This document shows positions 3,121 through 64,000 of a stretch of 64,000 bases of DNA, piece after piece. Location of the stretch: assembly GCA_964606485.1 (NCBI GenBank), contig CAZSGP010000003.1, positions 334,854 through 398,853 on the forward strand, given 5' to 3'. A program made the translations under genes and the position numbers. Source of the stretch: an uncultured Planctomycetia bacterium (GTDB lineage Bacteria; Omnitrophota; Gorgyraeia; 2-02-FULL-51-18). Numbering within the stretch: the stretch's first letter is position 1; every line of letters starts with the position of its first letter. The notes below the pieces were generated by a model that was not told the DNA's origin, did no database searches, and worked only from the letters and a program-made list of their open reading frames with translations.

Positions 3121-3196
3121 AATATTTTTTAACGGAAGATCGGATTGGTATACGCAAGGACGGACTTTAGGACAATGAAACTTTAAAGGGTGCGGC

Positions 3197-3652: not shown

Positions 3653-3715
3653 TTTTTAGTCCTCGCTCACACCATTATAGCGGTTTTAAAGACTCAAGTC
3701 CCGGATGGCTTAACT

Positions 3716-32665: not shown

Positions 32666-32667
32666 GG

Positions 32668-44395: not shown

Positions 44396-44440
44396 AATAA
44401 TAACGGATGATACGGCGCAATGGCAAGTATAAAAGCTGTC

Positions 44441-45613: not shown

Positions 45614-45745
45614 AAATGTCCCTAGTATGAAAGTATACCTAACTATTGATAAAATTCAATAGCTTCAATAATAATTTATAATAATTGTTAATAGTTACAT
45701 ACTTTAAAATCTTATTGATTTATCCTCAAATCTGCGGTAGGCTTA

Positions 45746-46306
45746 TTGCAAATGAAGGGTCTCGGTCAGAAAATCAAAACGCTCCGCAAATTTAAGCGCA
45801 TGACGCTGGTCGAAGTGTCGCAGAAAACGGGCATTGATCCGGCGACGCTGAGCCGCATGGAAAACGGTCGTATGACCGGCACGGTCGATAGCCACTCCCG
45901 GATTGCCGAAGTGTTGGGCATTCGCCTCCCCGATCTCTACGGGGACGTGATTGAGCGCTTAAACCAAGAAAAAGATCAGAAAATCAAACAGAAACTTTCG
46001 GGCTTTTCTCATTCTGACGGAGCCATTGCTGAACTCTTAACCACGTCCGTGATGCAGAAAAAAATGATGCCCACCCTGGTAAAGGTCAAGGGTCGTGGCC
46101 ACACCGAAGGCGAGCAGTACCCCGCTTTTACCGAGCGCTTTGTTTATGTTTTAAAAGGAAAGCTTGAGTGGGCTATCGGAAACGACAAAAGATCACTTAG
46201 CGAAGGCGAAAGTCTTTACTTTGACGCCTCCCAATTTCATCGGGGCACCAATTTACTCGCCACCGAAAGCAAATTTCTTTCGGTGATCACCCCCACCTCA
46301 CTCTAA
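45746..46306 (+). CDS. XRE-family HTH plus cupin-domain transcriptional regulator
   Basis: N-terminal HTH_3 (IKTLRKFKRMTLVEVSQKTGIDPATLSRMENG) and a C-terminal cupin. Confidence 0.75.
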   Translation: MQMKGLGQKIKTLRKFKRMTLVEVSQKTGIDPATLSRMENGRMTGTVDSHSRIAEVLGIRLPDLYGDVIERLNQEKDQKIKQKLSGFSHSDGAIAELLTTSVMQKKMMPTLVKVKGRGHTEGEQYPAFTERFVYVLKGKLEWAIGNDKRSLSEGESLYFDASQFHRGTNLLATESKFLSVITPTSL

Positions 46307-46542
46307 ATAATTATTTTATTTGCGGCGGCCGATTTTTTCGGCGCCAAGCGGATTGTGCTGCAGGAAATTTTTCAGCGGACCGTCAACAGAGCTCTTTGCT
46401 CTCTTAAAGCCTTTGAAAATTCGAAAGAGGCCGTCACTAAAAAACCCGTTCGGCGTCGCCGAGCGGGTGATTTGATACAACTTGTGACGTTTTTTCATAG
46501 TGCTTTAAAAATACATGATCACGCGGAGAAAATCAAGGGGGA

Positions 46543-48651: not shown

Positions 48652-49420
48652 GAACAGCGGTGTGGCAACCGGCGCTGTAGCAGGCTCCCTTATTCATGTG
48701 ATCGGTCGGCAAAACGCCGTGACAAGACCAGCAGGGTAAATTTTTATAGTGGCCTTGGTGAACTCTTCCGCCGATATAAGGAAAGTTGGATTGCGTATGG
48801 CAATTAAGGCAAAGATTGTTGTCGCGAGCCACGAGCATTTTGTCGTTGATGGATCCATGCACGGCGTGGCAGGTCGGACATCCCTCGCGCACGGCTTCGT
48901 GTTCCCACACAAATGGTCCGCGCTGCTCTTTGTGGCATTTAGAGCAAACCTCATTCACGCCTTCTGAGGAGGTCTTGGACCAGGCGGTAACATCGTCTCC
49001 GTGAGCGTCGTGACAATCCGCGCAGCTCATCTTCCCTTCAAGCACAGGGTGATGGGAGGGCAAACGAAATTCCATTTCTTTATCGGAGTGACAGCGGAAA
49101 CAAGCGGATGGGTCTTTGCGCGGATTAGTGATGGCCACGTCTATTCCGCCCCCCTCATCGGCGTGTTTGCTTCCGGGGCCGTGGCACATCTCACAGTCTT
49201 GCGCCTTTACATCGCCCTTGCTTATGGAAATGCGCGCATGAGTAGACCGTTTAAATTTTGCGGTGATCTCTTCGTGGCAACCTTCACAGGTATCCATTCC
49301 CACGTACTCAGCGCCTTCCTGAGAAACTTTTTCGGCGGCCCGGCTTTCTTTTGAAAAAAATGAAGTCCCTGCAAAAAATACAATCGCCACAACTAGACTG
49401 ACTCGGAAATAAATTTTCAT
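48617..49420 (-). CDS. Periplasmic multiheme cytochrome c (8 CxxCH plus one CX4CH)
   Basis: Signal peptide, then CEGCH, CEMCH, CFRCH, CADCH, CSKCH, CPTCH, CLNCH, CWSCH and CYSAGCH; 267 aa. Confidence 0.85.
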   Translation of the reverse strand: MKIYFRVSLVVAIVFFAGTSFFSKESRAAEKVSQEGAEYVGMDTCEGCHEEITAKFKRSTHARISISKGDVKAQDCEMCHGPGSKHADEGGGIDVAITNPRKDPSACFRCHSDKEMEFRLPSHHPVLEGKMSCADCHDAHGDDVTAWSKTSSEGVNEVCSKCHKEQRGPFVWEHEAVREGCPTCHAVHGSINDKMLVARDNNLCLNCHTQSNFPYIGGRVHQGHYKNLPCWSCHGVLPTDHMNKGACYSAGCHTAVHGSNFDDHLQY

Positions 49421-49421
49421 A

Positions 49422-50102
49422 TTAATTCTGCGCCTCGGCGACTATTTGATTAACTTTTTGTTGGTATTCGTCACCGGATATCCTTTTTTCCTTCCACAGC
49501 TGACTCAGCGCGTACACCTTCTTATTTTGTTCGGGCTTCAAGCGACTGGTATCGATTGGCTTTTCAATTGCTTCGCTCGGCTCTGCAGTTTCCTTAGAAA
49601 ACAAAGTGGGCTTGTCTAAATTCATGACTGCCAGCGCAGCGCTTTTTCGTCCGCTCATAAAACCTTCCGGCAAAATTCTCGCAGGATCCGCATCAAACAT
49701 TAGATTTCCCGTTATGATCCACGACCCGCTAACTTGGTAGCACAAAAAACGCCCAAAAATGGGCCCCGCTTCATAGTTTAACTGCAGCAAAACAACTTTG
49801 ACTTTCGCGGAGATGCTAAGCGTGTCGAGCACCTCGTAGCCCACGAAGCCGCCGTACACCGCATGAACCTCTTTAAATAATTCGATCTTTTTTAGAATTT
49901 CCGGATCCGACTGATAGGGGCTTTGCGACAACCATTTGCGGATCGCTTGCTCAGGCCCATCCACGGCGTAGGCGTATAAACCGTCGAGCACAATGGAAGG
50001 TGTTGAGGTGGCTTGCTGTGAGGATTCCTGGGCTCTAACCACACCCGTCGCTACAACATTTAAAAAAGCCATTAAAAAAAATGCAGCGACAAAACGGGCC
50101 AT
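49422..50102 (-). CDS. Secreted protein of unknown function, first gene of the cytochrome/porin operon
   Basis: 226 aa with a signal peptide. Its stop is 2 nt before the cytochrome start. Confidence 0.55.
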   Translation of the reverse strand: MARFVAAFFLMAFLNVVATGVVRAQESSQQATSTPSIVLDGLYAYAVDGPEQAIRKWLSQSPYQSDPEILKKIELFKEVHAVYGGFVGYEVLDTLSISAKVKVVLLQLNYEAGPIFGRFLCYQVSGSWIITGNLMFDADPARILPEGFMSGRKSAALAVMNLDKPTLFSKETAEPSEAIEKPIDTSRLKPEQNKKVYALSQLWKEKRISGDEYQQKVNQIVAEAQN

Positions 50103-50461
50103 GAATCACCTAGTCCTTTTGAAAAGATTACCGTAATTCAGAGCTAGATTATGTGACTTTGGTCACACTAAGGGTTAGTTTAAGAATGCGATGCCCTTTG
50201 CCGCGCGCTTCAAAGAGTCGTCCAGCGCCGCAGTAAGCTTAGCGGCCTTTATCAATTAATCCTTTAATGTTTAACGCTTTTAATTTTATGCCTCGGCGCA
50301 TCACGCGAATATTTTCAACCACTTTCTTATTCATCACCTTTTTTAGAAAAACGGCTAAATAAATTCTGGCATCGGGCAATTTTATGGTAATCATGCCGCT
50401 CTCTCCCTCAACAAAAAGAATGCTCTGAATTGACTAGCGTGTCTACTAGCCTATGATATTT

Positions 50462-50707
50462 TTAAATCTCAGCGACTCGATGAAGAATTTCCGATATAAA
50501 ACTCTGATACTTCACCCCGAGCTTTGAGGCTTTTTGTTTCAAATGTTCCAGATCGCTGCGATTAACACGGATATTCAGCACAGCATCTTTTTTCTTGGAT
50601 TCGATAGCCTGCACAATAGAGGCTAATTCCTTTTGGCTAGCTGGAACAAATTCATGAATAGACCGCTCAATTGCTCGCTCGTCTCTACTAAGCTTTAGGC
50701 TTCTCAT
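50462..50707 (-). CDS. brnA: BrnA-type antitoxin (CopG/RHH-like)
   Basis: 81 aa. It lies 3 nt downstream of brnT. Confidence 0.65.
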   Translation of the reverse strand: MRSLKLSRDERAIERSIHEFVPASQKELASIVQAIESKKKDAVLNIRVNRSDLEHLKQKASKLGVKYQSFISEILHRVAEI

Positions 50708-50710
50708 CTT

Positions 50711-50962
50711 TCACTTCCTCCCGTATCGTTTCATCAAGCTTCTACTTGGATAAATTGTTTTTAAAAAAATAGCTTCCTCATCTTCGACAAATGGAACCGC
50801 CCATAGATAGTTTTTGTATTCATAAACTAAAATACTCTGATGAATGCGATCAGGATGCTTCAAGACTTCCACGAGCTTTGACCGAGTAATTTCTTCAAAT
50901 GAAACACCTCTCGTTTTCTTGAGGCGCTCGCTTTTCAAGGCATTCCAACGAACTTGCTTCAT
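50711..50962 (-). CDS. brnT: BrnT-family (DUF497) ribonuclease toxin
   Basis: 83 aa, with VEVLKHPD...YEYKNYLWAVPFVEDEEAIFLKTIYPSR. Confidence 0.7.
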   Translation of the reverse strand: MKQVRWNALKSERLKKTRGVSFEEITRSKLVEVLKHPDRIHQSILVYEYKNYLWAVPFVEDEEAIFLKTIYPSRSLMKRYGRK

Positions 50963-50986
50963 TTAACCCTACCATTTGTATGCACA

Positions 50987-51000
50987 AATTGTATATACAA
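50987..51000. promoter_or_regulatory. Perfect 14-bp palindrome ATTGTATATACAAT just upstream of brnT
   Basis: It lies ~25 nt upstream of the brnT start codon. Confidence 0.45.
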
Positions 51001-51044
51001 TACATGAGTCTGTCAAGTATCGAAAATTGACGCGTTACAGGTGG

Positions 51045-51248
51045 TTACTTTTTCCGCGTAAATAAAAGATAAATCCCGCCAAAAATAATAAGAAAAAATC
51101 CGACGAGTGAGGTGAGCCGCGAGAGCTCCCGCAAGAGGCCGCCGATGTGGAGTTGCATGAAAATCATGTTCATGACGATGCCGATTGGGAGGAGGTAGAG
51201 GCCGAGTTTGAAGAGTGAGGGTTTTTTCATTTTTGTTTGAGGTGTCAA
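51045..51248 (-). CDS. Small two-TM membrane protein
   Basis: 67 aa, hydrophobic hairpin. Confidence 0.45.
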   Translation of the reverse strand: MTPQTKMKKPSLFKLGLYLLPIGIVMNMIFMQLHIGGLLRELSRLTSLVGFFLIIFGGIYLLFTRKK

Positions 51249-51283
51249 TTGTCAAGGACTGACACGTTTATTGGCATCCAGAT

Positions 51284-51517
51284 TTATGGCTTTCCAAATA
51301 AGCCAACCCACAAAGGATATAAACCCAATAAAATAAAAATAACCGCAATAACTCTTATATTAAAAATAACTTCCTTTTCGGAAGCGGGTTTTAGCCCCTC
51401 TTTTGTTACTCGACCAAATAGCTTCTGATAGAATCCAATATTTAAAAAAATCTTCTTTGGAAAAAGAAATACCAAAACTGAAAACCCTATAAAGATAATC
51501 GAGAAAATGATTGTCAT
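51284..51517 (-). CDS. Small two-TM membrane protein
   Basis: 77 aa. Confidence 0.45.
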   Translation of the reverse strand: MTIIFSIIFIGFSVLVFLFPKKIFLNIGFYQKLFGRVTKEGLKPASEKEVIFNIRVIAVIFILLGLYPLWVGLFGKP

Positions 51518-51587
51518 GCGCTAGGATCTACCATCGTTAAGGTGCGACTCTCTAATCCGACGCTAGTTTTACACATTTCTTATAATC

Positions 51588-52409
51588 TTAATTTATTGGA
51601 ACGCTAGACACTATATCAATCGTATCATTTTCCGAAGCAGCTCTCTTTTTGGACTCAATTATGATTTGCTTCGGTAAAATTAGCGGGCTCTTGGTATCGT
51701 ACAAAACCTGAAAGGATTTATATATTTTCGATCGCGGGTCGAACGTTGTGGTCTTTTTTAAAAGGAACTTTTCAATTGGTAAACGCTCAAACTCGCATGA
51801 GATCACTTCCTGGATCTTATTGTTATTTATCATTTCAATTTTCTCTAACAGAGAATTTTGTTTGAAAAATAGTCTTAAGATCGACTGATGCTGAGAATTA
51901 AGTACATTTAGAACAATTTCATAATCATTAAAACCTAGCTCTCTCACAACCGTCACATTTTTTGAAATAAAAATTTCATCGAAAAGAAATAAATTCGTTT
52001 GCAGGGCATCTCGAATACGGTCCTTGGTATGAATCACCGCTTTAGCCACCATTGCCGTATCCGCTTTAGCCACCATCTCTGGTACGTTATCTGCACGGCT
52101 ATAAAATTGCATGGGACTAACCCATTTAACCTTAAATTTGACTTGCTGGAGCTGCTTATGGGCAATCGGATCTTTTACGCGGGAAACCATCTCATCAAAA
52201 AAGTGCGACTTACATTCAAACTCGGCACCTTTCAAGCCCTGCTCCGATAGATTGTAATATGATGCATTGATCTTAGAAATTTGCTCAGCTGATACCGGGA
52301 CAAAATTCTTACTATCGTCATGTTTATATGAGCATGAGGACATGAAAATGGAGCAAGCTATGAGGAAAATCGGGAGTTTTATTGAAACCGCCATATTAAC
52401 CCTTAACAT
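51588..52409 (-). CDS. Lipoprotein, function unknown
   Basis: Lipobox IFMSSC; 273 aa; low-GC gene. Confidence 0.55.
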   Translation of the reverse strand: MLRVNMAVSIKLPIFLIACSIFMSSCSYKHDDSKNFVPVSAEQISKINASYYNLSEQGLKGAEFECKSHFFDEMVSRVKDPIAHKQLQQVKFKVKWVSPMQFYSRADNVPEMVAKADTAMVAKAVIHTKDRIRDALQTNLFLFDEIFISKNVTVVRELGFNDYEIVLNVLNSQHQSILRLFFKQNSLLEKIEMINNNKIQEVISCEFERLPIEKFLLKKTTTFDPRSKIYKSFQVLYDTKSPLILPKQIIIESKKRAASENDTIDIVSSVPIN

Positions 52410-52479
52410 TTGCTACGATCCTATCGGCCTTTTTATGATTTTTGCGTATCAGAAATAGCCCGCTTGAGATGCCAACCGA

Positions 52480-53175
52480 TTAATTTCTATTATTTTTTGG
52501 AAGAATATATTTTTTAGCGAAACTATCTTGATTTTCATAAGCCATAATTTCGTCTATCTTTCGCTTATATGCAATTTTGTGCTCTTCGATTCGACCTTGA
52601 TGAATGAGCGACTTCTCAATAATTATCGAGATGGAAGCAATCATAGTATTTGAATCCAAGAATATACTCGCATGACCCCCAATAAGCTCGGGAAAGATGA
52701 CTGTTTTAGCAAATTTTCCGTAGTCTAAGATCAGTTGTCCGGGCTCGCCATTATCCAAGTCCATTTTAAGATAGGCTTTTTTAGGAAAACCTAAATTTTT
52801 TACATTCGGTACTATAATGCTATATCCGGTTGGCTGATCACTAACTTTGATATCTATTTCATTTACAACTCCCGATGGGAGACGCTCATTCTGTCGAAAA
52901 CGGAATTTATCGCTTAGATCTATGTTCATTTGACGCGGGGTATTTTTATTTTCGTCACCCTCTATTACATCTGGCTTTTTAGACAGCACAGACTCGTGCG
53001 TAAAGGACGTATAGAGCCTATCTTCATCCTGTTTGAGCCCGTCCAGGAGATCATTTTCTGTATAACCGGCTGAACATATACATCCCATAAGCATAATAAC
53101 TAGGCTAGCGGTAGATAAAAGCTTCCATGCATTAACTTTATTTGTACAATATTTCAAGCAAGTACCTACCATCAA
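52480..53175 (-). CDS. Lipoprotein, function unknown
   Basis: Lipobox LMGC; 231 aa; low-GC gene. Confidence 0.55.
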   Translation of the reverse strand: MMVGTCLKYCTNKVNAWKLLSTASLVIMLMGCICSAGYTENDLLDGLKQDEDRLYTSFTHESVLSKKPDVIEGDENKNTPRQMNIDLSDKFRFRQNERLPSGVVNEIDIKVSDQPTGYSIIVPNVKNLGFPKKAYLKMDLDNGEPGQLILDYGKFAKTVIFPELIGGHASIFLDSNTMIASISIIIEKSLIHQGRIEEHKIAYKRKIDEIMAYENQDSFAKKYILPKNNRN

Positions 53176-53417
53176 TGCATCTCTATTTTTTTAACTTCTG
53201 GTTTTTTCTTTTGATTACTCTCTACCGGCCCAACGTAGGTAAAATTACCAATACGGGTAGCCGATAAATCATTACCGTTTTTTTGATTATCTTTTTCAAC
53301 CTCTTGGGCAAGAATTTTATTTAATTTTTCCCAATCTTTATCTTGCTTGCTGTCAGCCGCCCAGGCCGTAGGTAAAAATATCAAGCTTATCAACATCACC
53401 AAAATTATTTTTTTCAT
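53172..53417 (-). CDS. Small secreted protein
   Basis: 81 aa with a signal peptide. Confidence 0.45.
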   Translation of the reverse strand: MKKIILVMLISLIFLPTAWAADSKQDKDWEKLNKILAQEVEKDNQKNGNDLSATRIGNFTYVGPVESNQKKKPEVKKIEMH

Positions 53418-53463
53418 ATCATACCCTCTTACACTAAATTAACCGTCCTAACGCTACGCCTTA

Positions 53464-53769
53464 CTATCTATAAAAAATGGTTCCCAGATATCCTTTTTTA
53501 AAAAGGTAGCCACAATAACCAAAATTTAAACTTGTAAGAATGAGCAATCCAACCACTTTCCCAGTACTGCTGCTTAAATCCATATTGAAGGATTTTGCCA
53601 GGATTCCCATTACGACCAAGACGACAACCCAAATTGTCAATGCCGTAAAAAAACTTTTCCATCCTTCGAAAAATCGAATAGCTCCTAACAAGGCGGTGCT
53701 CCCAAAAAAGAGAATAAGATTTATAGTTTCGATTATTTCCATACTATCCCCAAATTCTGCACCACACAC
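53464..53769 (-). CDS. Small membrane protein
   Basis: ~91-101 aa with three hydrophobic segments. Confidence 0.45.
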   Translation of the reverse strand: MCGAEFGDSMEIIETINLILFFGSTALLGAIRFFEGWKSFFTALTIWVVVLVVMGILAKSFNMDLSSSTGKVVGLLILTSLNFGYCGYLFKKGYLGTIFYR

Positions 53770-53993
53770 TTATTTTAATTCAACCACTTAACTCCAACAA
53801 TTCTTAAACTAGCCTACCTTCTCAGTGGCTTTTCTTAGAGGTCTTAAATAGCCAAATCCCAAGACCCAGAAAAACTAATCCAAGAATTAAGCTTTGAGTT
53901 TTGAGCGTGTGGAAACGGATTAAAAAAATGGCTACGGCGAGAAAGTGCATCACGGAAAAAGCTATAAGAAAAAGGCTTAAGACCCGCCTAAAA

Positions 53994-54455
53994 CTAATCA
54001 ATGAGTTTTATCCAGCCATAACAAATACCTGGGTTGTTTTTAAAAAATGCTCCTGACGCATCCATTTCCGATGGAACACTTTCCTCATCAGGGGTATATT
54101 TTAAAATTGCGTGTAATTCATTATCCTGATTGACTAATTTGTTTTCAGTGCCTGTTAATTCTAGAAAGAATGGATCCTTACCTTCGTAATCATTAATCGC
54201 AGGTAAATAAGTAAGCAAATAAGTCGTCGAATATTTTAACCTTGCTTCATCGCTCAAGCCATCTCTATCTAATAGCAGCGGCTCATTCAGCCTAATAACA
54301 TACCCCCAAGATCCAAAAAGGAAACGCCTGACAAAAATCCCATTGAGCGTGGGCAGAAAAAGCTTAATGCCTTTTCTCTGATGAATTTCGTAGTCATAGG
54401 AATGTAGGCGAATTTGGACCTTCCTGCCAAGGACGTTATCTGAAAAGTAATTCAT
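53994..54455 (-). CDS. Hypothetical 153-aa protein immediately downstream of giant paralog 1 (candidate cognate immunity/partner)
   Basis: It starts 9 nt after the giant ORF's stop. Confidence 0.5.
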   Translation of the reverse strand: MNYFSDNVLGRKVQIRLHSYDYEIHQRKGIKLFLPTLNGIFVRRFLFGSWGYVIRLNEPLLLDRDGLSDEARLKYSTTYLLTYLPAINDYEGKDPFFLELTGTENKLVNQDNELHAILKYTPDEESVPSEMDASGAFFKNNPGICYGWIKLID

Positions 54456-54464
54456 GCTATTAAT

Positions 54465-57400
54465 CTACGTTAAGTCATCCAAAAAAGTAAACACAACATT
54501 TCGACTATCTATGTAACTCTGTTCTACAAAAATTTGAAGACCACCACCAAGACCGTTATCTCCGGCAGCCCTGCCGACGAAAAGTCGAACGCTGTCATCA
54601 AGCTCGACACTCGCCACTTTTGTGGCTTGATTAAACAGATTACCAGTTTCGTCGTATAGATTTAAAAATTGTCGTGCTGTATCGGTTGAATGTGCCCATT
54701 GCCCTGTCGTCAAAAACCTCCCCTCCAATGGCGAAGCCGCCCCATCATAAACTCGATACAAGTTCAACCTACCTTGCAGTCCTAACCTAGCTCTCAACTC
54801 ACCCGCTGTATACGTCTCAAACGCTCCAACTCCGGACTGAACCGATTCAAGAGTATTACCACCAAAAGTTTCAGCGATATCTCCGGAAAGTCGAAACGCA
54901 GGATTATTAGCTGCGGCAATTTCAGTAGTTGGACTTATCGATAAAAACCCCGCCTGCCCTAATTCCAGATTAACCGCACGCAAACCTGACGTAATGCCAC
55001 TAAGAGCTTCACCCACTCGAGGAACAAAACCAATTTCATGAAGAAGTTCTGCACCACCAACTGCATTGCCAACGGTGGAGAGAACACCCAATGCAATTTT
55101 TAATGAGCGATCAAAAGCTGAGAGTTGTTGGCCGCTTTGACTATCCACGCCATAAATTCCCTCAAGGAGAGGCGTGTATCCAACAAGATCTCCGACGGTT
55201 CCATGAACCGCCCAAAGCATTGCTTCGTTATCCGTGTATCCAAAAAGGGCTGATTTAAAGTAATTATATCGTGCTTGTGTTGCTTGGACCAGTTGAGCCG
55301 CTTGATTTTGTGCCAATATGGTTAGCATGTAATTACCAGGTGTCACGAGCGGCAAAACCTGCATCAAGCCTTGCTCCGTTAGCGGGTTAACGTTTCCAAA
55401 CCCGTACGCCAGTAATCTCCTAGCGGTCTCACTCAGAATTTGCTGAACCGAATAACTCCCGTCATTATTTCTTGAAAGCCTAAACCCCTCTCCACTTTGG
55501 AGCTGAGTCGGCAATATTGCGTCGAAGGGATCCATTGGCTGATAGAAAGTATACTCATTAATCGCCCCGGAATTTAACTCCAACCTAAAAATACCGTTAT
55601 AATTCGATTGAATGGTTCCGCTGTCGACTTGGCCTTGAGCATTAAAATTAATCGCTTGCTGATTGCTCGCTGCTGTTACTTCAAAACGTCTTGCTCCGCT
55701 CTGATCCAAGACTTCAATGTTATCTGCAAGGCCATTTGAGATGGTATAAACAGCTACGCTGCCATCACCCAGAGTTTCGGTTTGTCGTCCGGTTAAGAAT
55801 CCCCAATTTTCTATCTGATCCACTCCAAAGTGTCCGGCAATTTCTTTTCCTGCACCGCTCACACTCGTCACGTCCGTTAAGCTGGAAGTTGTTCCCACAC
55901 ACTCCCCTGTCGACGTACAAAACTGAGCTTCGATCTGTCCGTTCTTCTGAACTTGCTGGTAGTCGTGTCGATCGATCTTGTCCTGGAACCATTCGCCTAC
56001 GGATCTAAAGAGTTGGCTAGTGATAGGATTTACAGTTCTTAGAATCGACGAGATTGAGTCTTGGGTAAAAATATTCGCCGCATACGTATCAATCGCTTGC
56101 GCTAGACCTCTTTGTTGAATAATCGTCGAAAAATCTGTCACTCTTTGAAGATATTGAGCTTGAGAATAAGAATCCGTCCCAGTTCCCCCGAGTCTTGCGA
56201 CATTGAGGGCCGAGTCTCTGAACCCTTGGTATATTCCTCCAAAAATATCATGGTTGGGTGAAAGAGCTCCTTCTATCGCTCCTGTTATTGCTCTGGATGT
56301 GAGAGCTCCAAGAAGCGGATCCATGTTTTGAGTGGCATAGCTGATTCCAAGATTCGTCACCCCACGCAGTAGCCCGTCTTGAACAGACCGAATAATATTT
56401 TCTCCAAGAGTCTTTGCTTCGGTGTGAGTGGGGTTAAGGGCGCTTGAGACAGTGGTGGTGAGTAGCGCATTGATTCTAGGATCAAGTCCAATGGATGCTC
56501 CCAGTCTATCGATGCCGTAGATCGTTAAGTCTCTTGGGAGATTGGAAGCGATGGTTTGAATAGACCCATTGATGTCTCCGGTCCATGCTCCGTCAAAAAG
56601 AGGAGCTGCGGTAAGTGAAATTACCCCTGCAAGTTTAGGGTCTAATCCTGCGTGAACAAGGAGATCTTTTGATCCTGCGACAAGCGTGTTCTTTAGTCCA
56701 TCAAAGAAGAAGTTTGAGAAGTCCATACCGGTAGCGGTGAAGCTTCCGTGGATGCCGCCTGTCACAAAGCTTGAGATGAGGTTTGAGATTCGAGGGTCTA
56801 CTCCGAGCGCGTCAAGGCCTTTAGAGACGGCGTAGTTGACACCAATAGTGATGACGTTATGAAAGATTGCCTCTGAGGCAGAGACTTTAAGCGTTCCTGC
56901 GGCGACACCTTGAGGAGCTCCTAGAGAGAAGAGACTAGCTAGTCCATGAAAGAGTGTCGTTCCAACGTACTGAATGCCTTGGAAGATTTGGCCTGCGAAG
57001 GCTCCGACTTGAGTGAGGAATCCTCCGATGGCTTGGCCTAAGAGAGTCAGAGACTGAGCGATGATGCTGCCGATGCTTGCAAGAATAGCTCCAATACTCG
57101 AAAGAATCACGCCTACCGTTGTGGCAATCGAGACGATGGCCCCAATGATGGCAGGAATTAGGAAGAAACAGCCGCCTTTCAGTTGGCGAGCTTCAAAGAA
57201 AGACAGAATGTGCGATGTGGGGCTTGTGACTTGCGGAATAACCGTTGATTTTGCAAGGGTGTATCCCTTCCAAGCACTCAGAAACTCACTCTTTGAAAGC
57301 GTGTGGACACTTCCGTCGGTTTCAACGAGAGTGACTTGGGTGGAGGTTTGTTGAAATGCAGTATTTGGAAATAAATTAACGCTCGGAGCTTCGAATGAAC

Positions 57401-57467
57401 GGGCGGATTGAATTAAATAAAGATTGAGGTGAAGAAATACGAGGAGAGCTGAGAGAGATTTTTTAAG
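54465..57467 (-). CDS. Giant paralog 1 of the G(L/V)DP-repeat family, with a unique C-terminal domain
   Basis: The track ORF is 54465..57110 (GTG start). The homologous N-terminal 119 codons continue in frame up to 57467 with no ATG, GTG or TTG; the equivalent position of copy 2's TTG start is CTT. A strong AGGAGG SD lies 9 nt upstream. Confidence 0.6.
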   Translation of the reverse strand, partial: LKKSLSALLVFLHLNLYLIQSARSFEAPSVNLFPNTAFQQTSTQVTLVETDGSVHTLSKSEFLSAWKGYTLAKSTVIPQVTSPTSHILSFFEARQLKGGCFFLIPAIIGAIVSIATTVGVILSSIGAILASIGSIIAQSLTLLGQAIGGFLTQVGAFAGQIFQGIQYVGTTLFHGLASLFSLGAPQGVAAGTLKVSASEAIFHNVITIGVNYAVSKGLDALGVDPRISNLISSFVTGGIHGSFTATGMDFSNFFFDGLKNTLVAGSKDLLVHAGLDPKLAGVISLTAAPLFDGAWTGDINGSIQTIASNLPRDLTIYGIDRLGASIGLDPRINALLTTTVSSALNPTHTEAKTLGENIIRSVQDGLLRGVTNLGISYATQNMDPLLGALTSRAITGAIEGALSPNHDIFGGIYQGFRDSALNVARLGGTGTDSYSQAQYLQRVTDFSTIIQQRGLAQAIDTYAANIFTQDSISSILRTVNPITSQLFRSVGEWFQDKIDRHDYQQVQKNGQIEAQFCTSTGECVGTTSSLTDVTSVSGAGKEIAGHFGVDQIENWGFLTGRQTETLGDGSVAVYTISNGLADNIEVLDQSGARRFEVTAASNQQAINFNAQGQVDSGTIQSNYNGIFRLELNSGAINEYTFYQPMDPFDAILPTQLQSGEGFRLSRNNDGSYSVQQILSETARRLLAYGFGNVNPLTEQGLMQVLPLVTPGNYMLTILAQNQAAQLVQATQARYNYFKSALFGYTDNEAMLWAVHGTVGDLVGYTPLLEGIYGVDSQSGQQLSAFDRSLKIALGVLSTVGNAVGGAELLHEIGFVPRVGEALSGITSGLRAVNLELGQAGFLSISPTTEIAAANNPAFRLSGDIAETFGGNTLESVQSGVGAFETYTAGELRARLGLQGRLNLYRVYDGAASPLEGRFLTTGQWAHSTDTARQFLNLYDETGNLFNQATKVASVELDDSVRLFVGRAAGDNGLGGGLQIFVEQSYIDSRNVVFTFLDDLT
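56398..57036. repeat. ~640-bp block 100% identical to 60343..60980 (gene-conversion tract between paralogs 1 and 2)
   Basis: The two blocks match exactly. The flanking sequence is ~90% identical. Confidence 0.8.
57117..57370. repeat. Second near-identical block (3 SNPs) shared with 61063..61320
   Basis: Seen in sequence. Confidence 0.75.
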
Positions 57468-57485
57468 CGTGGTGATCCTCCTTAT

Positions 57486-58457
57486 TTATTCTTCATACCA
57501 AGAAGCGGATGCATCCGAGGAGTAACCCAAACCAGGCCCGAGGTAAGCGGGGGTTGTAATTTGCCATTCTCTATTGCCTTCCAAAGATTGGATAAAAATA
57601 GCCGAGCCGCCCGAAGGGACCGGCTTAGAGTAATATATTTTTTTTCCATCTTTCGAGAGGCCAATGTTCAGATAGAAGCCTTGCGCTTCTTTGATGATTT
57701 CTATTTTGCCCGTCTCGGTATCAAACTTACCAAGAATTCCGAAACGGTCGTTGAAGTGGGTGCCGTCATTTTGATAATTAGCGTGTATAACCGCATACCT
57801 GTTATCAGTAAGCCAACCAGCAATGCCAACGTTATAATTCAGTTTTCTGGTTTCTTGATTTCGAAAATTCTGAATCAAAACAAACGTGTCACCCTCAACC
57901 CCGAGCGTTGGCACAACAACATAAGCTGCTTTTTCTCTATTCCGACTGACCTTGATTTGATATACCTCGTAGCCTTTAGGAATCTCATATAATTTTCTTG
58001 ATTCTCCTGTTTGAAGATTATGGAGTATAACAGTGGCAGTTTTTTTGTCATCCGTCCAACCTTGGGCGTAAACAATATTATCTTCGTCTACCCAGTCTGA
58101 AGCATTAGGATAATACTCTGTTTTGACTTGCTGTAAAACATCTCCATTTTCATTTAGGATGTAAAGGGCATTATGCTCGTGAGCAGCGAGGATCTTCTGG
58201 CCGCTCGGAGAAAAAAGAGCTTCCGCTATCAAAAGACCCGAACCAAGTTCTTTGATTTGGCCATTCTTAAATAAATAAACCTCGGAGGACGTCTTGCTGG
58301 TGGGGTTTCTTTTAGCATCTATAAGCCATTTACCAGAAAATTGAACTGATGAAGAAGCTTCGCTTGAACGAGTTTTGGTCTGTGGTTCCTCCGAAGCATA
58401 GCAACCTGATATTGTGAGATTTAAAAAAATAAGTGCTACCGAAAAAAGTTTGCTCAT
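57486..58457 (-). CDS. TolB-like PD40 beta-propeller lipoprotein
   Basis: Lipobox LTISGC and PD40-like repeats (SPSGQKILAA, SKDGKKIYYS); 323 aa. Confidence 0.65.
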   Translation of the reverse strand: MSKLFSVALIFLNLTISGCYASEEPQTKTRSSEASSSVQFSGKWLIDAKRNPTSKTSSEVYLFKNGQIKELGSGLLIAEALFSPSGQKILAAHEHNALYILNENGDVLQQVKTEYYPNASDWVDEDNIVYAQGWTDDKKTATVILHNLQTGESRKLYEIPKGYEVYQIKVSRNREKAAYVVVPTLGVEGDTFVLIQNFRNQETRKLNYNVGIAGWLTDNRYAVIHANYQNDGTHFNDRFGILGKFDTETGKIEIIKEAQGFYLNIGLSKDGKKIYYSKPVPSGGSAIFIQSLEGNREWQITTPAYLGPGLGYSSDASASWYEE

Positions 58458-61411
58458 AACTGTCCGATGTAGTTAGTATAGGGCATCACACTGTTAACTC
58501 CACCTAGGAGAGCTGAGGAGACGTCGCCAGCACTTAGCGGTTGAGCCACGCCTTCCAATGATTTGGCGACGCTTATCTGTATAGCTTGATTAATAAGAGC
58601 ACTGTTTGATTGTAAAAGATTGTTAAACGATGGGGCATTGTTATTATTATTTTGAGTCGACAACTGAAGGTCAGTGGTTAGAATGCAAAGGCCCTTCGCT
58701 TGATCAACACGCGTTGTTCTAATTCGGACAATATCTTTATCAGAAATAACATCATGCTCATAAGACACACGAACTTTTAATTTAAAATCCGACGTCTGAA
58801 CTGATGCAAAGATTCCACCGCCGCCTGAGACACTGGCTTGTAGATTGGGTCCATTTACCCGCGTACTCCCCCTAAGGGTAGAAAGATCCATGGATGTACC
58901 ACCTTCTATTCTTCCGTTTCCACTTAAACCTGCAATAACCTGGAGATTATTAAACAACGTCGCTTTAAGGCCAACGGAGATATCGGTTCCAATCCTATAA
59001 CCATTGGAGTCTCCAATCACCGCGCGAACCATCTCCCCTTGGTTTAGATTGATGAATCCGAAGAGATCTTGATTGGCGCTTTGTCCATCCATAAACACGT
59101 GCCCGTCTTCACGGCTAAATCGAACTTCGCTCTGACCTATCTGCGTAGATTCTGTGCGAACCGATTGGACAAGAGCGAGAAGAGGTTGGCGACCAAAGAA
59201 TCGCTGCATTTGCACACCATAATCTTTGACCTTATCGAGTGTTTGTTGTGCGTTTATATAGCCCTGCTGTTGTAACTTTTGAAGAATTTGCTCGGGTGTT
59301 AAGGGCTGAGGATCAGAAAACTGATCCTGTAGGTTTGGATTTATTTCATTGGCATCAAAAAGCTGGTCAAGTATTGGAGCGGACTGCCTCATGAGATCAT
59401 TTTTAAAATTAATGAACATTCGAGCAGCGTCAGAGATGCCTGTGAAGCTTATCGCATAATTATTTTGAAGCTGGTCAAAATAAATCCTAGTCCCCCCAAA
59501 TTCCTGACCAACAACCACTCCATCATGGACAGAGAATGATCTGTTTTGAGCGTCTAGTTGACTTAGGGTTGCATCCACATACTCTCCGAAAGAATTAAAC
59601 GTATTATACCCTCCCTGAGAATTTGGTGTAACAACCAAAATGGTCTTCCCTGTTGAATCCTTTATTTCGACGTAAGTCTGCTGTCCATTTTGAATGCGTT
59701 GGAATTGCTCATGGGAATTAAATGGTGATTGGGCGCGAGCGAGAGATCCCTCTATCATTCCCCAGCTATTGGTATCTTGGACATCCACGCCAGAGCTTGA
59801 GATGGATTTGTAGAGGTCTTTGTCTGTTACGCCCAAAAGATGAGTGTCGTTATATTCAATCCCGATGGAGTTATCATCCAGGAGGCTTAAAGATTTAAGC
59901 GCTTGATTCCCCCGCTGAATCGTCTGCTCTTTTCCTTGAGCAATTCTTGTTTGAATCGCATTTTGGATACTTCCATAGGTACGGACGATGGATTCAACGG
60001 AATCAGCTTGAAAAATATTCGCCGCATAAGTATCGATAGCTTGAGCGAGGCCTCTCTGCTGGATAATCGTCGAAAAATCTGTCACTCTTTGAAGATATTG
60101 AGCTTGAGCATAAGAATCATTTCCCGTTCCCCCGAGCCTTGCGACATTGAGGGCTGAATCTCTAAACCCTTGGTAGATTCCTTGGAAAATATCATGGTTT
60201 GGTGAAAGAGCTCCTTCAATCGCTCCTGTAATGGCTCTTGAAGTTAACGCTCCAAGAAGCGGATCCATGTTTTGAGTGGCGTAGCTAATTCCAAGATTCG
60301 TCACTCCACGCAGCAACCCATCCTGCACCGACCGAATAATATTCTCTCCAAGAGTCTTTGCTTCGGTGTGAGTGGGGTTAAGGGCGCTTGAGACAGTGGT
60401 GGTGAGTAGCGCATTGATTCTAGGATCAAGTCCAATGGATGCTCCCAGTCTATCGATGCCGTAGATCGTTAAGTCTCTTGGGAGATTGGAAGCGATGGTT
60501 TGAATAGACCCATTGATGTCTCCGGTCCATGCTCCGTCAAAAAGAGGAGCTGCGGTAAGTGAAATTACCCCTGCAAGTTTAGGGTCTAATCCTGCGTGAA
60601 CAAGGAGATCTTTTGATCCTGCGACAAGCGTGTTCTTTAGTCCATCAAAGAAGAAGTTTGAGAAGTCCATACCGGTAGCGGTGAAGCTTCCGTGGATGCC
60701 GCCTGTCACAAAGCTTGAGATGAGGTTTGAGATTCGAGGGTCTACTCCGAGCGCGTCAAGGCCTTTAGAGACGGCGTAGTTGACACCAATAGTGATGACG
60801 TTATGAAAGATTGCCTCTGAGGCAGAGACTTTAAGCGTTCCTGCGGCGACACCTTGAGGAGCTCCTAGAGAGAAGAGACTAGCTAGTCCATGAAAGAGTG
60901 TCGTTCCAACGTACTGAATGCCTTGGAAGATTTGGCCTGCGAAGGCTCCGACTTGAGTGAGGAATCCTCCGATGGCTTGGGTCAATAAAGTGAGTGACTG
61001 GGCGATAATAGCGCCGATACTGGCGATAATCGTTCCAATTGCATAAATAATGGATCCTATTGTTGTGGCAATCGAGACGATGGCTCCAATGATGGCAGGA
61101 ATCAGGAAGAAACAGCCGCCTTTTAGTTGGCGAGCTTCAAAGAAAGACAGAATGTGCGATGTGGGGCTTGTGACTTGCGGAATAACCGTTGATTTTGCAA
61201 GGGTGTATCCCTTCCAAGCACTCAGAAACTCACTCTTTGAAAGCGTGTGGACACTTCCGTCGGTTTCAACGAGAGTGACTTGGGTGGAGGTTTGTTGAAA
61301 TGCAGTATTTGGAAATAAATTGATCTGTGGGGCTTCGAAGGATTGAGCGGACGAAAGAAGAATTAAATTAAGGTGGAGAAAAACTAGGAGAGCGGAGAGA
61401 AATTTTTTCAA
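58454..61411 (-). CDS. Giant paralog 2 of the G(L/V)DP-repeat family (985 aa)
   Basis: TTG start with no SD, and a signal-peptide-like N-terminus. A glycine-zipper hydrophobic segment is followed by repeats (LGVDPRISNL / AGLDPKLAGV / IGLDPRINAL / MDPLLGAL) and a unique C-terminal half. Confidence 0.7.
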   Translation of the reverse strand: MKKFLSALLVFLHLNLILLSSAQSFEAPQINLFPNTAFQQTSTQVTLVETDGSVHTLSKSEFLSAWKGYTLAKSTVIPQVTSPTSHILSFFEARQLKGGCFFLIPAIIGAIVSIATTIGSIIYAIGTIIASIGAIIAQSLTLLTQAIGGFLTQVGAFAGQIFQGIQYVGTTLFHGLASLFSLGAPQGVAAGTLKVSASEAIFHNVITIGVNYAVSKGLDALGVDPRISNLISSFVTGGIHGSFTATGMDFSNFFFDGLKNTLVAGSKDLLVHAGLDPKLAGVISLTAAPLFDGAWTGDINGSIQTIASNLPRDLTIYGIDRLGASIGLDPRINALLTTTVSSALNPTHTEAKTLGENIIRSVQDGLLRGVTNLGISYATQNMDPLLGALTSRAITGAIEGALSPNHDIFQGIYQGFRDSALNVARLGGTGNDSYAQAQYLQRVTDFSTIIQQRGLAQAIDTYAANIFQADSVESIVRTYGSIQNAIQTRIAQGKEQTIQRGNQALKSLSLLDDNSIGIEYNDTHLLGVTDKDLYKSISSSGVDVQDTNSWGMIEGSLARAQSPFNSHEQFQRIQNGQQTYVEIKDSTGKTILVVTPNSQGGYNTFNSFGEYVDATLSQLDAQNRSFSVHDGVVVGQEFGGTRIYFDQLQNNYAISFTGISDAARMFINFKNDLMRQSAPILDQLFDANEINPNLQDQFSDPQPLTPEQILQKLQQQGYINAQQTLDKVKDYGVQMQRFFGRQPLLALVQSVRTESTQIGQSEVRFSREDGHVFMDGQSANQDLFGFINLNQGEMVRAVIGDSNGYRIGTDISVGLKATLFNNLQVIAGLSGNGRIEGGTSMDLSTLRGSTRVNGPNLQASVSGGGGIFASVQTSDFKLKVRVSYEHDVISDKDIVRIRTTRVDQAKGLCILTTDLQLSTQNNNNNAPSFNNLLQSNSALINQAIQISVAKSLEGVAQPLSAGDVSSALLGGVNSVMPYTNYIGQL
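60343..60980. repeat. Partner of the 100%-identical block 56398..57036
   Basis: Seen in sequence. Confidence 0.8.
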
Positions 61412-61420
61412 AAAATAATT

Positions 61421-62533
61421 TTACGCAATCCAATCCGCAAATTCATCGGTAGCCCAGGCTCGGGGATGATTTATCGGATATCTTTTATCCCGCTGAGCCG
61501 GGGTTAGCCGAGCTTCTCCGGTACCGTCGAGATTCATGACGAATAGTTCGGCGCCCGTAAAAGGGAAATGGTGCCTATGGGAACTAAACACGATCTGTTT
61601 ACCGTCTGGAGAAAAAACGGGATAACGGTTATGCCATTTGTTTGGGCTAATTGGCCAGTCTTTGCCAGTTCTTACGTCGTATAGACAAATTTGCAGTCCA
61701 TCGGCAAATTCCCTACCACCACGATAATGCCTGGACGCAAAAACAATATAATTGCCATCAGGAGACCAGGCGGGATCATGTGCGTAATCAAGAATACGCT
61801 TCAAACCGGTTCCGTCTGCGTTTACAACGCTGATCGCTCCACCCTCATCAATAGCTATTCTTTTCCCGTCCGAAGATATTCTGAATAATATGATTCTGTT
61901 CATTCCCAGCATAGATTCTCGGTCTGTGATCCGCACCTCATTACCGGATTCAATATCATGCCGATAAATATTATCAGCCCCTCCGCCTGAGGGATTTTTA
62001 TCAACAGCTGCGTAGTAGACAGACTTTCCATCGGGAGACCAAACAACACTTTCAGCGCTCTTCTTTGTTTTGATACGGTATCTAATGGATCCTTCAAGAG
62101 CTAGGACGGGCGGGTCTTGATCTTCTTCATTAGTTTCACATAAGATACTTTTCCCATCCGGCGACCATCGAGGCTCTCTGAACTTTCCAAAACCACCGCC
62201 AAGCATCCCTTCAAGAGGTTTTAGTCCTTCGGGAGTTGTTTCGGCGAGGCTCCCGCCGTCGGCTATTTTTTTCATTTGTCCGTTTTCTAATACCCAAATC
62301 TCGGATGCTGAACCCGAACGATCACTTTGAAAAACAATTTTTCCGGGGACTTTTACTAGAGCATCTGAGTTAGATGTTTTTATGGGCTTAGGTGGCATGG
62401 GAGTATCTTTCTTTAGCTGGGAGAATATAAAAACTCCGAGAATAAGTAGAGCGGCTATGCTAAGTAGTGGGAGTATGGAGGATTTCTTCATTGATGTAGT
62501 GACGCAGTTCGTTGGGGTCAATTTTATTGTCAT
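61421..62533 (-). CDS. TolB-like PD40 beta-propeller protein with an N-terminal membrane anchor
   Basis: Repeats WSPDGKS (twice), WSPDGNY, FSPDGKQ; 370 aa. Confidence 0.65.
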   Translation of the reverse strand: MTIKLTPTNCVTTSMKKSSILPLLSIAALLILGVFIFSQLKKDTPMPPKPIKTSNSDALVKVPGKIVFQSDRSGSASEIWVLENGQMKKIADGGSLAETTPEGLKPLEGMLGGGFGKFREPRWSPDGKSILCETNEEDQDPPVLALEGSIRYRIKTKKSAESVVWSPDGKSVYYAAVDKNPSGGGADNIYRHDIESGNEVRITDRESMLGMNRIILFRISSDGKRIAIDEGGAISVVNADGTGLKRILDYAHDPAWSPDGNYIVFASRHYRGGREFADGLQICLYDVRTGKDWPISPNKWHNRYPVFSPDGKQIVFSSHRHHFPFTGAELFVMNLDGTGEARLTPAQRDKRYPINHPRAWATDEFADWIA

Positions 62534-64000
62534 GGTTATAGTCGGTTGGGCTGATGCCGAGTGTGCTCAGTAAATCCGAAACCACCCACTCACTGCAGAA
62601 TCGACTGCTACCATCAGACGATGGGATGTATCCGGGATTTATAATGCCAACTGAGTTAAAATGGATTTCTACGGTTGGGGCCATTGTTACAGTATTAATG
62701 TATCGTGACATTGTATCTCGCATAAATTCGCTTGCAACGTTAGCCGCAAGTGGCAACGCCTGCGCCACAATATCCAGAGAATCAGCCTCCCAATCTTCCA
62801 AAGAAAGCACTCTTAAATCATTACCGAAGAGAGACTGTTCAACTAGATCTGCGACATAGATTCTACCGTCATTGCCCTGAAACGCAATACCTGAATGATT
62901 CACTACAAAAGTCTCATCGCCTATTCTTGTCTGTGCTCGGACAGTATTGTATACAAAGCCTTGTGATGCGTTGTGAACAACGTATATTTGTCCGGGACTT
63001 GCCATCATTCGTTGGACCTCTGCGTTTCTGTGATCGGCGATTTCCTGGTTGGTGCGAGCGCCTAGCATTAAATGCGCGTTACTAAAACGCTGTAAGGTCT
63101 CTTCCCGCGTAAGAGCCGCGTTTTGAGGAGCGTTTGTTAGTTTGTTCATTAAATTATTTACGGCGTTAGGATCGGCGCCTTCCGTCGGGACATAACTGAC
63201 TTGCATCTGCCCCGTCTGGCCATCTTCCTGCACTCTAACACTGATACCCTCAAAGTCACCAGTTGCGACACCGAGTGACGCAAACAAATAATCATCGTTT
63301 GAATCTAAACCTAGCCGGAAGGGGTTGTTGGTGCTGGGCGCCAAAAGGGGCGCTTCATACATTTCGACGTACCCACCCTTAAGTGTCATGCGGTAGCCTT
63401 CGGGAAGTTCGAGATCCAAGTCTCTAAAAATATTAGCATCTTGATCAAACAGCAGTCCCACTGGAGTGGTCGTTGCAATGGTGGTAGCAGTCGCCTGTGG
63501 ATCTTCTTTGATCTGAGCATTATTGATAGCACCGCGGTCGACTTCTGAGACGACGCTATATCCGCTGCCGGCCTCAACGGCGGATACATTCCCTTCAAGC
63601 ATGCCGAACTTACCGTTTTGATCAAAGCCGTAGCGGGCGTTGGTTTCCTCGATAGTGATAGTTGTTTGCGTGCCACCATCCAAGAGAATCGTTTTGTCAT
63701 ATCTTCTACCCCACATATCCATTGTTGCCGGATCCAAATAGATATACTCTTGTTTTCCACCAGAGCTAAAGTTTACTTCCGTAACTTGAGTGCCGTTTAC
63801 TGTTCTAGTCGTTGCTTGGCCTGTTAGGAATTGGGCAATGCCACCATTAGCCCAAATATTTTGAACGGCAGATCCCGTGAATATTTGAGTGGCATTGGCC
63901 TCAAGCACGTGGCCTAAGCGCTGCAATAACGTTCCCTGGGACTGAGAGCTTATTGCGGAGCTAAAGTCCATGACTCTCGATAAATACTGGGCTTGCTGGT
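62460..64000 (-). CDS. Giant paralog 3, C-terminal >510 aa; the gene continues beyond the window end
   Basis: The frame stays open past the listed Met at 63971 (...AQYLSRVMDFSS, matching AQYLQRVTDFST of paralogs 1 and 2). The C-terminus is unique and ends in a dockerin/EF-hand-like DYNHDNKIDPNELRHYI. Confidence 0.6.
   Translation of the reverse strand, partial: QQAQYLSRVMDFSSAISSQSQGTLLQRLGHVLEANATQIFTGSAVQNIWANGGIAQFLTGQATTRTVNGTQVTEVNFSSGGKQEYIYLDPATMDMWGRRYDKTILLDGGTQTTITIEETNARYGFDQNGKFGMLEGNVSAVEAGSGYSVVSEVDRGAINNAQIKEDPQATATTIATTTPVGLLFDQDANIFRDLDLELPEGYRMTLKGGYVEMYEAPLLAPSTNNPFRLGLDSNDDYLFASLGVATGDFEGISVRVQEDGQTGQMQVSYVPTEGADPNAVNNLMNKLTNAPQNAALTREETLQRFSNAHLMLGARTNQEIADHRNAEVQRMMASPGQIYVVHNASQGFVYNTVRAQTRIGDETFVVNHSGIAFQGNDGRIYVADLVEQSLFGNDLRVLSLEDWEADSLDIVAQALPLAANVASEFMRDTMSRYINTVTMAPTVEIHFNSVGIINPGYIPSSDGSSRFCSEWVVSDLLSTLGISPTDYNHDNKIDPNELRHYINEEILHTPTT

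Follow-up and report, generated by a model that had tools for sequence, protein, structure and literature searches.

Near-identical tracts in tandem toxin-like paralogs of an uncultivated Omnitrophota bacterium and their probable origin by gene conversion

The DNA stretch analyzed in this study, referred to as the window, comprised 64,000 nucleotides (nt) of contig CAZSGP010000003.1 (positions 334,854 to 398,853, forward strand) from GenBank assembly GCA_964606485.1, whose source is named as an uncultured Planctomycetia bacterium and is placed by GTDB in the Omnitrophota. It contains an array of at least three tandem, co-oriented paralogs, p3, p2 and p1, which are on the minus strand and are each followed by a small partner gene of their own. 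The genes are arranged in the order of p3, a PD40/TolB-like gene, p2, a gene for a lipoprotein of 323 amino acid residues (aa), p1 and a gene for a 153-aa protein. Because these genes overlap or are at most ~10 nt apart, they probably form a single operon. The proteins of p1 and p2 consist of, in this order, a signal peptide, the remnant of a C39-like domain, a double-glycine (GG) motif, a glycine-rich hydrophobic segment, a conserved module and an unrelated C-terminal region of ~500 aa. The members of the array are as follows.

62460..64000, minus strand: 3' part of paralog p3, which continues past the right window edge and is extended by 269 nt in contig L021 of the Logan assembly described below
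61421..62491, minus strand: PD40/TolB-like beta-propeller gene downstream of p3 (Pfam PD40, E=3e-27)
58454..61411, minus strand: paralog p2 (P0001), 985 aa, with a TTG start and a Sec-type signal peptide
57486..58457, minus strand: gene for the 323-aa lipoprotein (lipobox ISGC), which overlaps the stop of p2 by 4 nt and is the candidate partner/immunity gene of p2
54465..57485, minus strand: paralog p1, an open frame of 1006 codons; the public gene call is P0002 with 881 aa
53994..54455, minus strand: gene for the 153-aa protein, 9 nt downstream of p1 and without signal peptide; candidate cognate immunity gene

Self-BLAST, a check that had been proposed in a first-pass annotation of this DNA, identified one direct repeat, between 56067-57464 in p1 and 60011-61408 in p2 (92.9% identity over 1399 columns), as the sole strong repeat of the window. 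A general repeat finder reported the first 300 nt of it and no more. The repeat covers the 5' ~1.4 kb of p1 and p2 at a constant offset of 3944 nt, and base-by-base alignment resolved five segments, E, D, C, B and A. For each segment, the synonymous (pS) and nonsynonymous (pN) differences between p1 and p2 were determined with Nei-Gojobori counts. The segments, from the start of the genes onward, are as follows.

57378..57470 in p1, minus strand: segment A, start region and signal peptide, diverged from p2 61322-61411; pS 0.66, pN 0.21
57118..57377 in p1, minus strand: block B, 260 nt with 3 single-nucleotide polymorphisms (SNPs) relative to p2 61062-61321; pS 0.062, pN 0
61062..61321 in p2, minus strand: block B of p2, as placed by base-by-base alignment
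57037..57117 in p1, minus strand: patch C, 81 nt or 27 codons, 63% identical to p2 60981-61061; pS 0.66, pN 0.245
56401..57036 in p1, minus strand: block D, 636 nt, 100% identical to p2 60345-60980 and covering 212 codons of the conserved module; pS 0.006, pN 0
60345..60980 in p2, minus strand: block D of p2, the exact counterpart of p1 56401-57036
56067..56400 in p1, minus strand: segment E, 3' part of the conserved module, 87.7% identical to p2 60011-60344; pS 0.42, pN 0.022

Both near-identical tracts have diverged homologous sequence on either side. Block D lies between E (87.7%) and C (63%), and block B lies between C and A (58% in the ungapped part of A at 57378-57413, with small indels elsewhere in A). 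Block B is 98.8% identical between p1 and p2, and its three differences, at 57141, 57159 and 57180, are all synonymous; the longest exact run within it is 197 nt (57181-57377). It codes for the C39-like domain remnant and the double-glycine motif LSFFEARQLKGG. Patch C, in which 19 of the 27 codons differ, separates D from B and codes for the glycine-zipper hydrophobic segment. Segment E contains 41 differences over its 112 codons, 35 of which are at third codon positions. Past 56067 the homology ends and the DNA is unalignable, with only a weak protein-level match of 23% over ~150 aa remaining (E=0.011).

These results largely agree with the first-pass annotation, which had described an identical stretch of ~640 bp, a second stretch of ~250 bp with 3 SNPs, flanks of ~90% identity and unrelated 3' halves. 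The second stretch and the unrelated 3' halves were found as described. The identical stretch was confirmed as an exact run of 636 nt, although its start had been placed 3 nt too early (56398/60343), which takes in the mismatch at 56400/60344. The flanks, however, are only 58-88% identical. The minus-strand location of the genes, the presence of at least three paralogs and the diverged patch C between the two tracts were added by this study.

The synonymous sites are the most informative part of this comparison. Segment E, whose protein sequence is 98% identical, is under strong purifying selection, and yet it has accumulated many silent changes. Given that selection at the protein level is unable to remove synonymous differences, the identity of D and B is best explained by recombination between the copies. 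As E combines purifying selection with a pS of 0.42, this identity is attributable to sequence transfer and not to constraint. Moreover, when the differing sites were permuted 100,000 times, the longest identical run was at most 204 nt, compared to the 636 nt observed. With third codon positions only, the longest run in 100,000 permutations was at most 93 sites, compared to 212 observed. A chance origin of the identical run is excluded by these permutations.

Thus, the p1/p2 mosaic is best explained by gene conversion, to which we assign a probability of about 0.75. The proposal of recent gene conversion between the two paralogs, already made in the first-pass annotation, is supported by the pS values of 0.006 and 0.062 in D and B versus 0.42-0.66 in E, C and A. 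All three SNPs of B and D combined fall in B (p=0.024), and the synonymous divergence is lower in E than in A and C together (Fisher p=0.016), so the tracts seem to be of differing age, with at least two ages represented. This is the pattern expected for repeated gene conversion and concerted evolution of the module, and the recombination would have been intragenomic and non-reciprocal.

The third paralog was also found to share exact sequence with p1 at the border of block D. The frame of p3 runs from 63998 to 62460, and its visible part opens with the family motif QQAQYLSRVMDFSS. An independent assembly of sequencing run SRR12487046, which consists of Logan contigs built with k=31, provided contig L021, whose first 30 nt are exactly those of p1 56412-56383 and whose 31st base differs. 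A 30-nt match at the end of a k=31 contig implies that p3 and p1 have at least one 31-mer (56383-56413) in common. The 3' border of this shared exact run is located 18 nt from the p1/p2 D/E border (56400/56401), and downstream of it p3 is strongly diverged from p1 and p2. All three genes probably contain block D or, at a minimum, the 3' end of it. A search of the protein database for full-length p3 returned no match. The earlier suggestion that homogenization is ongoing fits both the differences in tract age and the position of p3 at the block D border.

Mechanistically, gene conversion between the direct repeats would have replaced stretches of the 5' module in one copy by those of another copy. 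RecA-type homologous recombination among three co-oriented copies could produce such short non-reciprocal patches, and deletions or fusions would also be possible. The 636-nt tract would be so recent that substitutions have yet to accumulate, and the second tract of 197-260 nt would be slightly older or the product of a separate event; segment E may mark a still older exchange. The signal-peptide segment A and the 81-nt patch C would have escaped conversion. As conversion would end where homology ends, the toxin-like tails and the partner genes would stay distinct, and the shared 5' module could serve as a homology substrate for the exchange or activation of tails. For example, recombination of p2 with p1 at the 636-nt repeats would fuse the start and signal peptide of p2 to the tail of p1 and would delete the p2 tail together with the 323-aa gene.

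The independent assembly supports the presence of the repeats in the reads. Logan contigs L019, L020 and L021 are 100% identical to the window at 57348-60092, 43994-56148 and 61292-64000, respectively, and L021 continues for 269 nt beyond the window. Wherever a contig stops at the repeat, it does so exactly 30 nt (k-1) into a shared exact run. The ends at 56148 and 60092 fall within a 46-nt run (56119-56164/60063-60108), and those at 57348 and 61292 fall within block B. Because the contigs break at k-1 inside shared runs, the repeats must be present in the reads. The reads also contain both versions of A and of E as well as the borders of the shared runs.

Several points nevertheless weigh against the gene conversion reading. 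The interior of block D lies outside the independent assembly, and its identity, similar to the phasing of the 5' and 3' halves across B and D, depends on the original assembler alone. A short-read assembler that walked one collapsed path two to three times could overstate the identity and hide a few SNPs, which would alter the degree of identity and would keep the nature of the finding. Moreover, the diverged 81-nt patch C between two converted tracts is unaccounted for by one simple event; it may have arisen through two separate events, patchy repair or a third donor, or a copy-specific hydrophobic segment may have been selected for. The closest relatives among 185,579 species genomes and the metagenomes of the Joint Genome Institute (JGI) have at most 59% amino acid identity. 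The species genomes contained 2 family loci (at most 51% identity) and the JGI metagenomes 16 (at most 59%), each with a single family gene. With a single genome and no near relative, the donor, the recipient and the timing of conversion cannot be polarized. Finally, p1 and p2 are putative toxins in which above-threshold Pfam domains are absent, and a profile of the p1 C-terminal tip found no match among the sequences of the PDB, leaving the NADase-like fold considered below without sequence-level support.

A diversity-generating retroelement was considered as a source of patch C and was rejected, as the mismatches are of mixed type and show no adenine specificity. Nothing resembling a reverse transcriptase was found among what was examined in the region.

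Two other explanations of the identity invoke the assembly or the order of events. Similar paralogs may have been collapsed during assembly or homogenized during polishing through multi-mapped reads, possibly with their halves mis-phased, so that the identity would be wholly or partly an artefact. This explanation is unlikely. It is in line with the failure of the k=31 assembly to cross the repeats and with the occurrence of P0001 and P0002 in one assembly alone. In addition, by our reasoning on the assembly graph, the presence of D in up to three copies permits a second linear order, in which for example the 5' half of p3 is joined to the p2 tail, and allows patch C to be paired with either version of segment A. 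However, the borders of the shared runs were matched to the base by the independent assembly, and the three SNPs of block B and patch C were kept apart in the contig, which argues against blind merging by the assembler. Even if a few SNPs were lost, the divergence of D would be far under the flank pS of 0.4-0.66, and the case for conversion would stand. The first-pass annotation was thus right to warn of assembly collapse, since these repeats interrupt a k=31 assembly of the same sample, and without long reads this contig is not to be trusted as to which 5' half belongs to which 3' half. Slightly less probable is that block D is the remnant of a recent segmental duplication or unequal crossover, with A, C, E and the tails brought in later from paralogs or foreign DNA. 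Unequal crossover does expand tandem arrays, the guanine-plus-cytosine (GC) content of the tails and partner genes (0.38-0.44 vs 0.47 for the module) is compatible with imported cassettes, and the p1/p2 homology ends at the family-wide boundary between module and tail. This history would nonetheless require three or more separate replacements within 1.4 kb (A, C and E), each sparing the reading frame and the protein, and the 98% protein identity of E at a pS of 0.42 suggests long co-residence of functional copies and not import. In practice, such a history is also one of recombination between paralogs and differs from gene conversion mainly in the order of events.

That block D was instead kept at the nucleotide level by selection without any transfer, as an overlapping gene, an RNA element or a regulatory site, is effectively refuted by the contrast in synonymous sites: 212 consecutive silent sites are identical in D, compared to 35 third-position changes in the equally constrained E. 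Nothing was found in favor of it. An RNA element or overlapping gene in block D was rejected, as there was no Rfam match and the opposite strand contained short open reading frames (ORFs) only. A scan of 53-64 kb for promoter- and terminator-like sites gave counts no higher than those of shuffled sequence and was uninformative.

No in-frame ATG, GTG or TTG was found in p1 from 57485 to 57110. A strong Shine-Dalgarno site, TAAGGAGG, is located 6 nt before an ACG at 57470-57468 on the minus strand (region 57468-57488), and this ACG is also present in contig L019. Judged from these features, ACG 57470-57468 is the probable start of p1. The public call P0002 opens at the internal GTG 57110, at which the signal peptide and the GG motif would be lost, and is probably truncated. 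Moreover, p1 shares its reading frame with the upstream 323-aa gene, from which it is separated by a single TAA (57486-57488). p1 may therefore be weakly initiated, re-initiated after the upstream stop or a recently silenced copy. For p2, an exact look-up of P0001 returned no record.

A small ORF on the same strand followed the family gene at every locus examined and often encoded a lipoprotein or a membrane protein. The pairing between tail type and downstream gene was conserved once, in an unrelated metagenome contig (L009) in which a PD40 gene (3261-4364) with 42-43% identity to that of the window comes after a C-terminus of the p3 type. The 323-aa lipoprotein and the protein of the PD40 gene are distant homologs (21% identity, E=4e-11). 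The follower genes of p3 and p2 are thus distant paralogs that encode PD40/TolB-like beta-propellers, of which one is membrane-anchored and the other a lipoprotein. Beta-propellers would be unusual as immunity proteins.

Neither p1 nor p2 contained a Pfam domain above threshold or had a relative in the PDB by sequence search. A word-indexed search found 12 relatives and no more, one of which was from an Omnitrophica metagenome-assembled genome. When the module (p2 residues 150-470) was used in a full HMMER scan, 228 cluster representatives were identified. Most of the complete representatives were 2000-4900 aa long, with the module ~450-550 aa from the C-terminus. The giant ORFs in related loci contained Laminin_G_3 and RHS_repeat domains, and a Peptidase_C39 domain was found just upstream of the module. 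The module of ~320 aa consists of four repeats of ~53 aa, with four GLDP(R/K)-type motifs (LGVDPR, AGLDPK, IGLDPR and NMDPL) spaced 52-54 aa apart (p1 56301-56807; p2 +3944). The AlphaFold model of the module, built from 12 sequences, was all-helical with a predicted local distance difference test score (pLDDT) of 42 and a predicted template modeling score (pTM) of 0.30, and was unusable for a fold search.

The double-glycine motif is located at 57171-57206 in p1 and 61115-61150 in p2, with the arrangement of L(-12)S(-11)FFE(-8)ARQL(-4)KG(-2)G(-1), and is followed by CFFLIP. Double-glycine leaders follow a consensus of the LSxxELxxIxGG type. In the family, the motif is ~40 aa past the C39 domain and has the exact spacing of double-glycine leaders (L-12, S-11, E-8, I-4, G-2 and G/A-1), as exemplified by a relative with KVLSAQETQNIRGA followed by FWGS. 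The LSxxExxx[IL]xG[GA] motif was conserved in the family (P0004-P0108) after the C39 or C39-like domain and before the glycine-zipper stretch; in ~20 of 33 regular-expression matches among the relatives, the form at this place was LSxxETQxIRGA. Of the C39-like domain, p1 and p2 have, by alignment, only the final ~45 residues, which do not include the catalytic part. The motif is internal, at residue ~100 in p1/p2 and at ~2000-4100 in the giants. Its conserved position suggests self-processing by the protein's own C39 domain.

Downstream of the module, the relatives diverge stepwise. The ~200 aa right after the module are distantly homologous, with 120 of 122 relatives in one cluster, whereas the middle parts of the tails form 46 clusters and 44 were obtained for the last 160 aa. 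The cassette swapping envisaged in the first-pass annotation fits this family, in which 44 unrelated clusters of C-terminal ends are found behind one conserved module. Tips among the relatives include RES (2) and Tle3/alpha-beta-hydrolase lipase-like domains. The relevant features of the p1 tail are as follows.

55059..55211, minus strand: sub-threshold match to PF14449 (Pre-toxin TG) in p1, E=0.0036, 17.7 bits compared to a cut-off of 23.5
54468..54887, minus strand: tip of p1, the 140 aa at its C-terminus; candidate toxin domain, whose fold is tentatively NADase-like

A single homolog of the p1 tip was found. Its AlphaFold2 model was of low confidence (pLDDT 55, pTM 0.57), and the top three Foldseek matches in the PDB were the interbacterial NADase toxins Tne2, Rhs1-CT and Tse6, after which came fungal NADases (E 2e-3 to 1e-2). 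The NADase-like fold is thus a tentative, model-based lead and not proof. The tip also holds a GRAAGDNGLGGGLQ stretch. The p2 tip had no match. Taken by its architecture, the family appears to be polymorphic-toxin-like with linked putative immunity genes, and p1 and p2 would be toxins with immunity genes directly downstream.

The array resembles several known systems. In Salmonella Typhimurium, an orphan Rhs toxin is expressed via recombination with the main gene (Koskiniemi et al., 2014; PMC3967940). Similar to the Rhs main and orphan genes, the genes of this study are tandem, toxin-like and linked to a gene downstream, and they differ in their tails but have 5' sequence in common, through which recombination would likewise provide a tail further downstream with a start and an export signal. 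Similar to the Rhs orphan, p1 is without a canonical start codon. Different from the Rhs genes, however, p1 and p2 do not contain RHS/YD repeats or an Rhs core in Pfam, and p1 is no short fragment but almost complete, with a Shine-Dalgarno site and a signal peptide of its own. Moreover, the pattern here is that of conversion without deletion, and there is no fusion or deletion product. RHS_repeat was not found in p1 and p2, and the RHS_repeat matches of the giant relatives were isolated and far upstream. TPS, FHA and VENN/pretoxin Pfam domains, which would be expected for CdiA/two-partner secretion, were absent from p1, p2 and the giants. Because the defining domains are absent, this is not an Rhs or CdiA family.

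Recombination diversifies the hypervariable C-terminal domains of polymorphic toxins, to which a conserved N-terminal part is joined (Zhang, Aravind et al., 2012; PMC3482391). The family shares with them, including CdiA-CT/CdiI and MafB (PMC4287609), the common N-terminal part, variable C-termini, an immunity-like gene directly downstream, putative pre-toxin and releasing-peptidase modules and, in the relatives, RES and lipase-type tips; a shared region followed by many unrelated C-termini was found across the 122 relatives. Different from known polymorphic toxins, its conserved module is without a Pfam model, no marker of a type V, VI or VII secretion system (T5SS, T6SS or T7SS) was found near the array, and release is a candidate role of an internal C39-like domain together with the canonical double-glycine site after it. 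C39-like domains have been listed as toxin domains (Tox-PL-C39) and not as releasing peptidases (PMC3482391). What is new is thus the family, whose module has no Pfam model and no characterized member, together with the putative C39/double-glycine release device.

The likeness to peptidase-containing ABC transporter (PCAT) substrates is limited to the LSxxELxxIxGG-type motif of p1/p2. PCAT substrates have the motif in a short N-terminal leader, which is cleaved by a C39 domain at the N-terminus of the ABC exporter, whereas in this family the motif is internal and the C39 domain, of which p1 and p2 have only a remnant, is located just upstream in the same polypeptide. Moreover, p1 and p2 begin with a Sec signal peptide. 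Classical examples of bacterial gene conversion are tufA/tufB in Salmonella and pilE/pilS in Neisseria, and, as in these, non-reciprocal transfer would keep parts of the paralogs identical while the flanks diverge. In contrast to the tuf genes, in which whole genes of the same function are homogenized, only a shared module is homogenized here and the tails differ. The tandem paralogs of the T7SS immunity genes esaG and tipC also recombine (Garrett et al., 2022; PMC9484751). Similar to p1 and p2, their high-identity blocks are substrates for intergenic recombination that produces mosaics; however, those are immunity genes of Firmicutes, while toxin-like genes of an uncultivated Gram-negative lineage are involved here. 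Finally, the largest architecture cluster of Omnitrophota giant proteins consists of 24 proteins with PF03412 (Peptidase C39), according to a passage of a preprint that holds no toxin or recombination interpretation (bioRxiv 10.64898/2026.06.07.730766). The relatives of p1/p2 are alike in being giant and in having a C39 domain, and the likeness is by those traits alone; p1 and p2, by comparison, have a signal peptide and are short, at ~1000 aa.

Gene conversion in tandem paralogs and recombination-driven exchange of tails in toxin loci are already well established. The array provides a clean and datable case of concerted evolution inside a tandem toxin-like array of an uncultivated Gram-negative bacterium and brings to notice a sizeable unannotated family (228 cluster representatives, many of 2000-4900 aa). 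The combination of C39 domain, double-glycine site, repeat module, hypervariable tail and partner gene suggests a new scheme for the delivery and release of polymorphic toxins. A more speculative and rather doubtful extension is that the array is a cassette-switching member of an undescribed polymorphic-toxin family, in which cleavage by the internal C39 at the double-glycine site would free a delivery-plus-toxin unit of ~900 aa and the homogenized 5' module would be kept as a recombination substrate for re-arming the start-less p1 (ACG for ATG) or exchanging its tail. This would be akin to orphan Rhs activation, but with near-full-length silent copies.

Directly downstream of the array is a low-GC island at 50103-54455 (0.38 vs 0.47 in the rest of the window), which contains small ORFs without Pfam match and a gene for an 81-aa CopG-antitoxin-like protein (Logan annotation, weak match). 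They may represent additional immunity genes, or the island may be unrelated to the array. Elsewhere, the window contains the following RNA genes.

11788-12176: transfer-messenger RNA (tmRNA) gene with the tag peptide AKNTNLNVVRIPFAGNMALPLAA
14844-14926: tRNA-Leu(CAG) gene

Given the tmRNA, the tRNA-Leu and genes for resistance-nodulation-division (RND) efflux, a type III glutamine synthetase and a multihaem cytochrome, the window is chromosomal. A weak direct repeat (32438-32530 vs 33676-33768; 74% over 95 nt) was also found, which lies between the adjacent minus-strand ORFs 31442-32704 and 32668-33894 and probably marks another pair of tandem paralogs.

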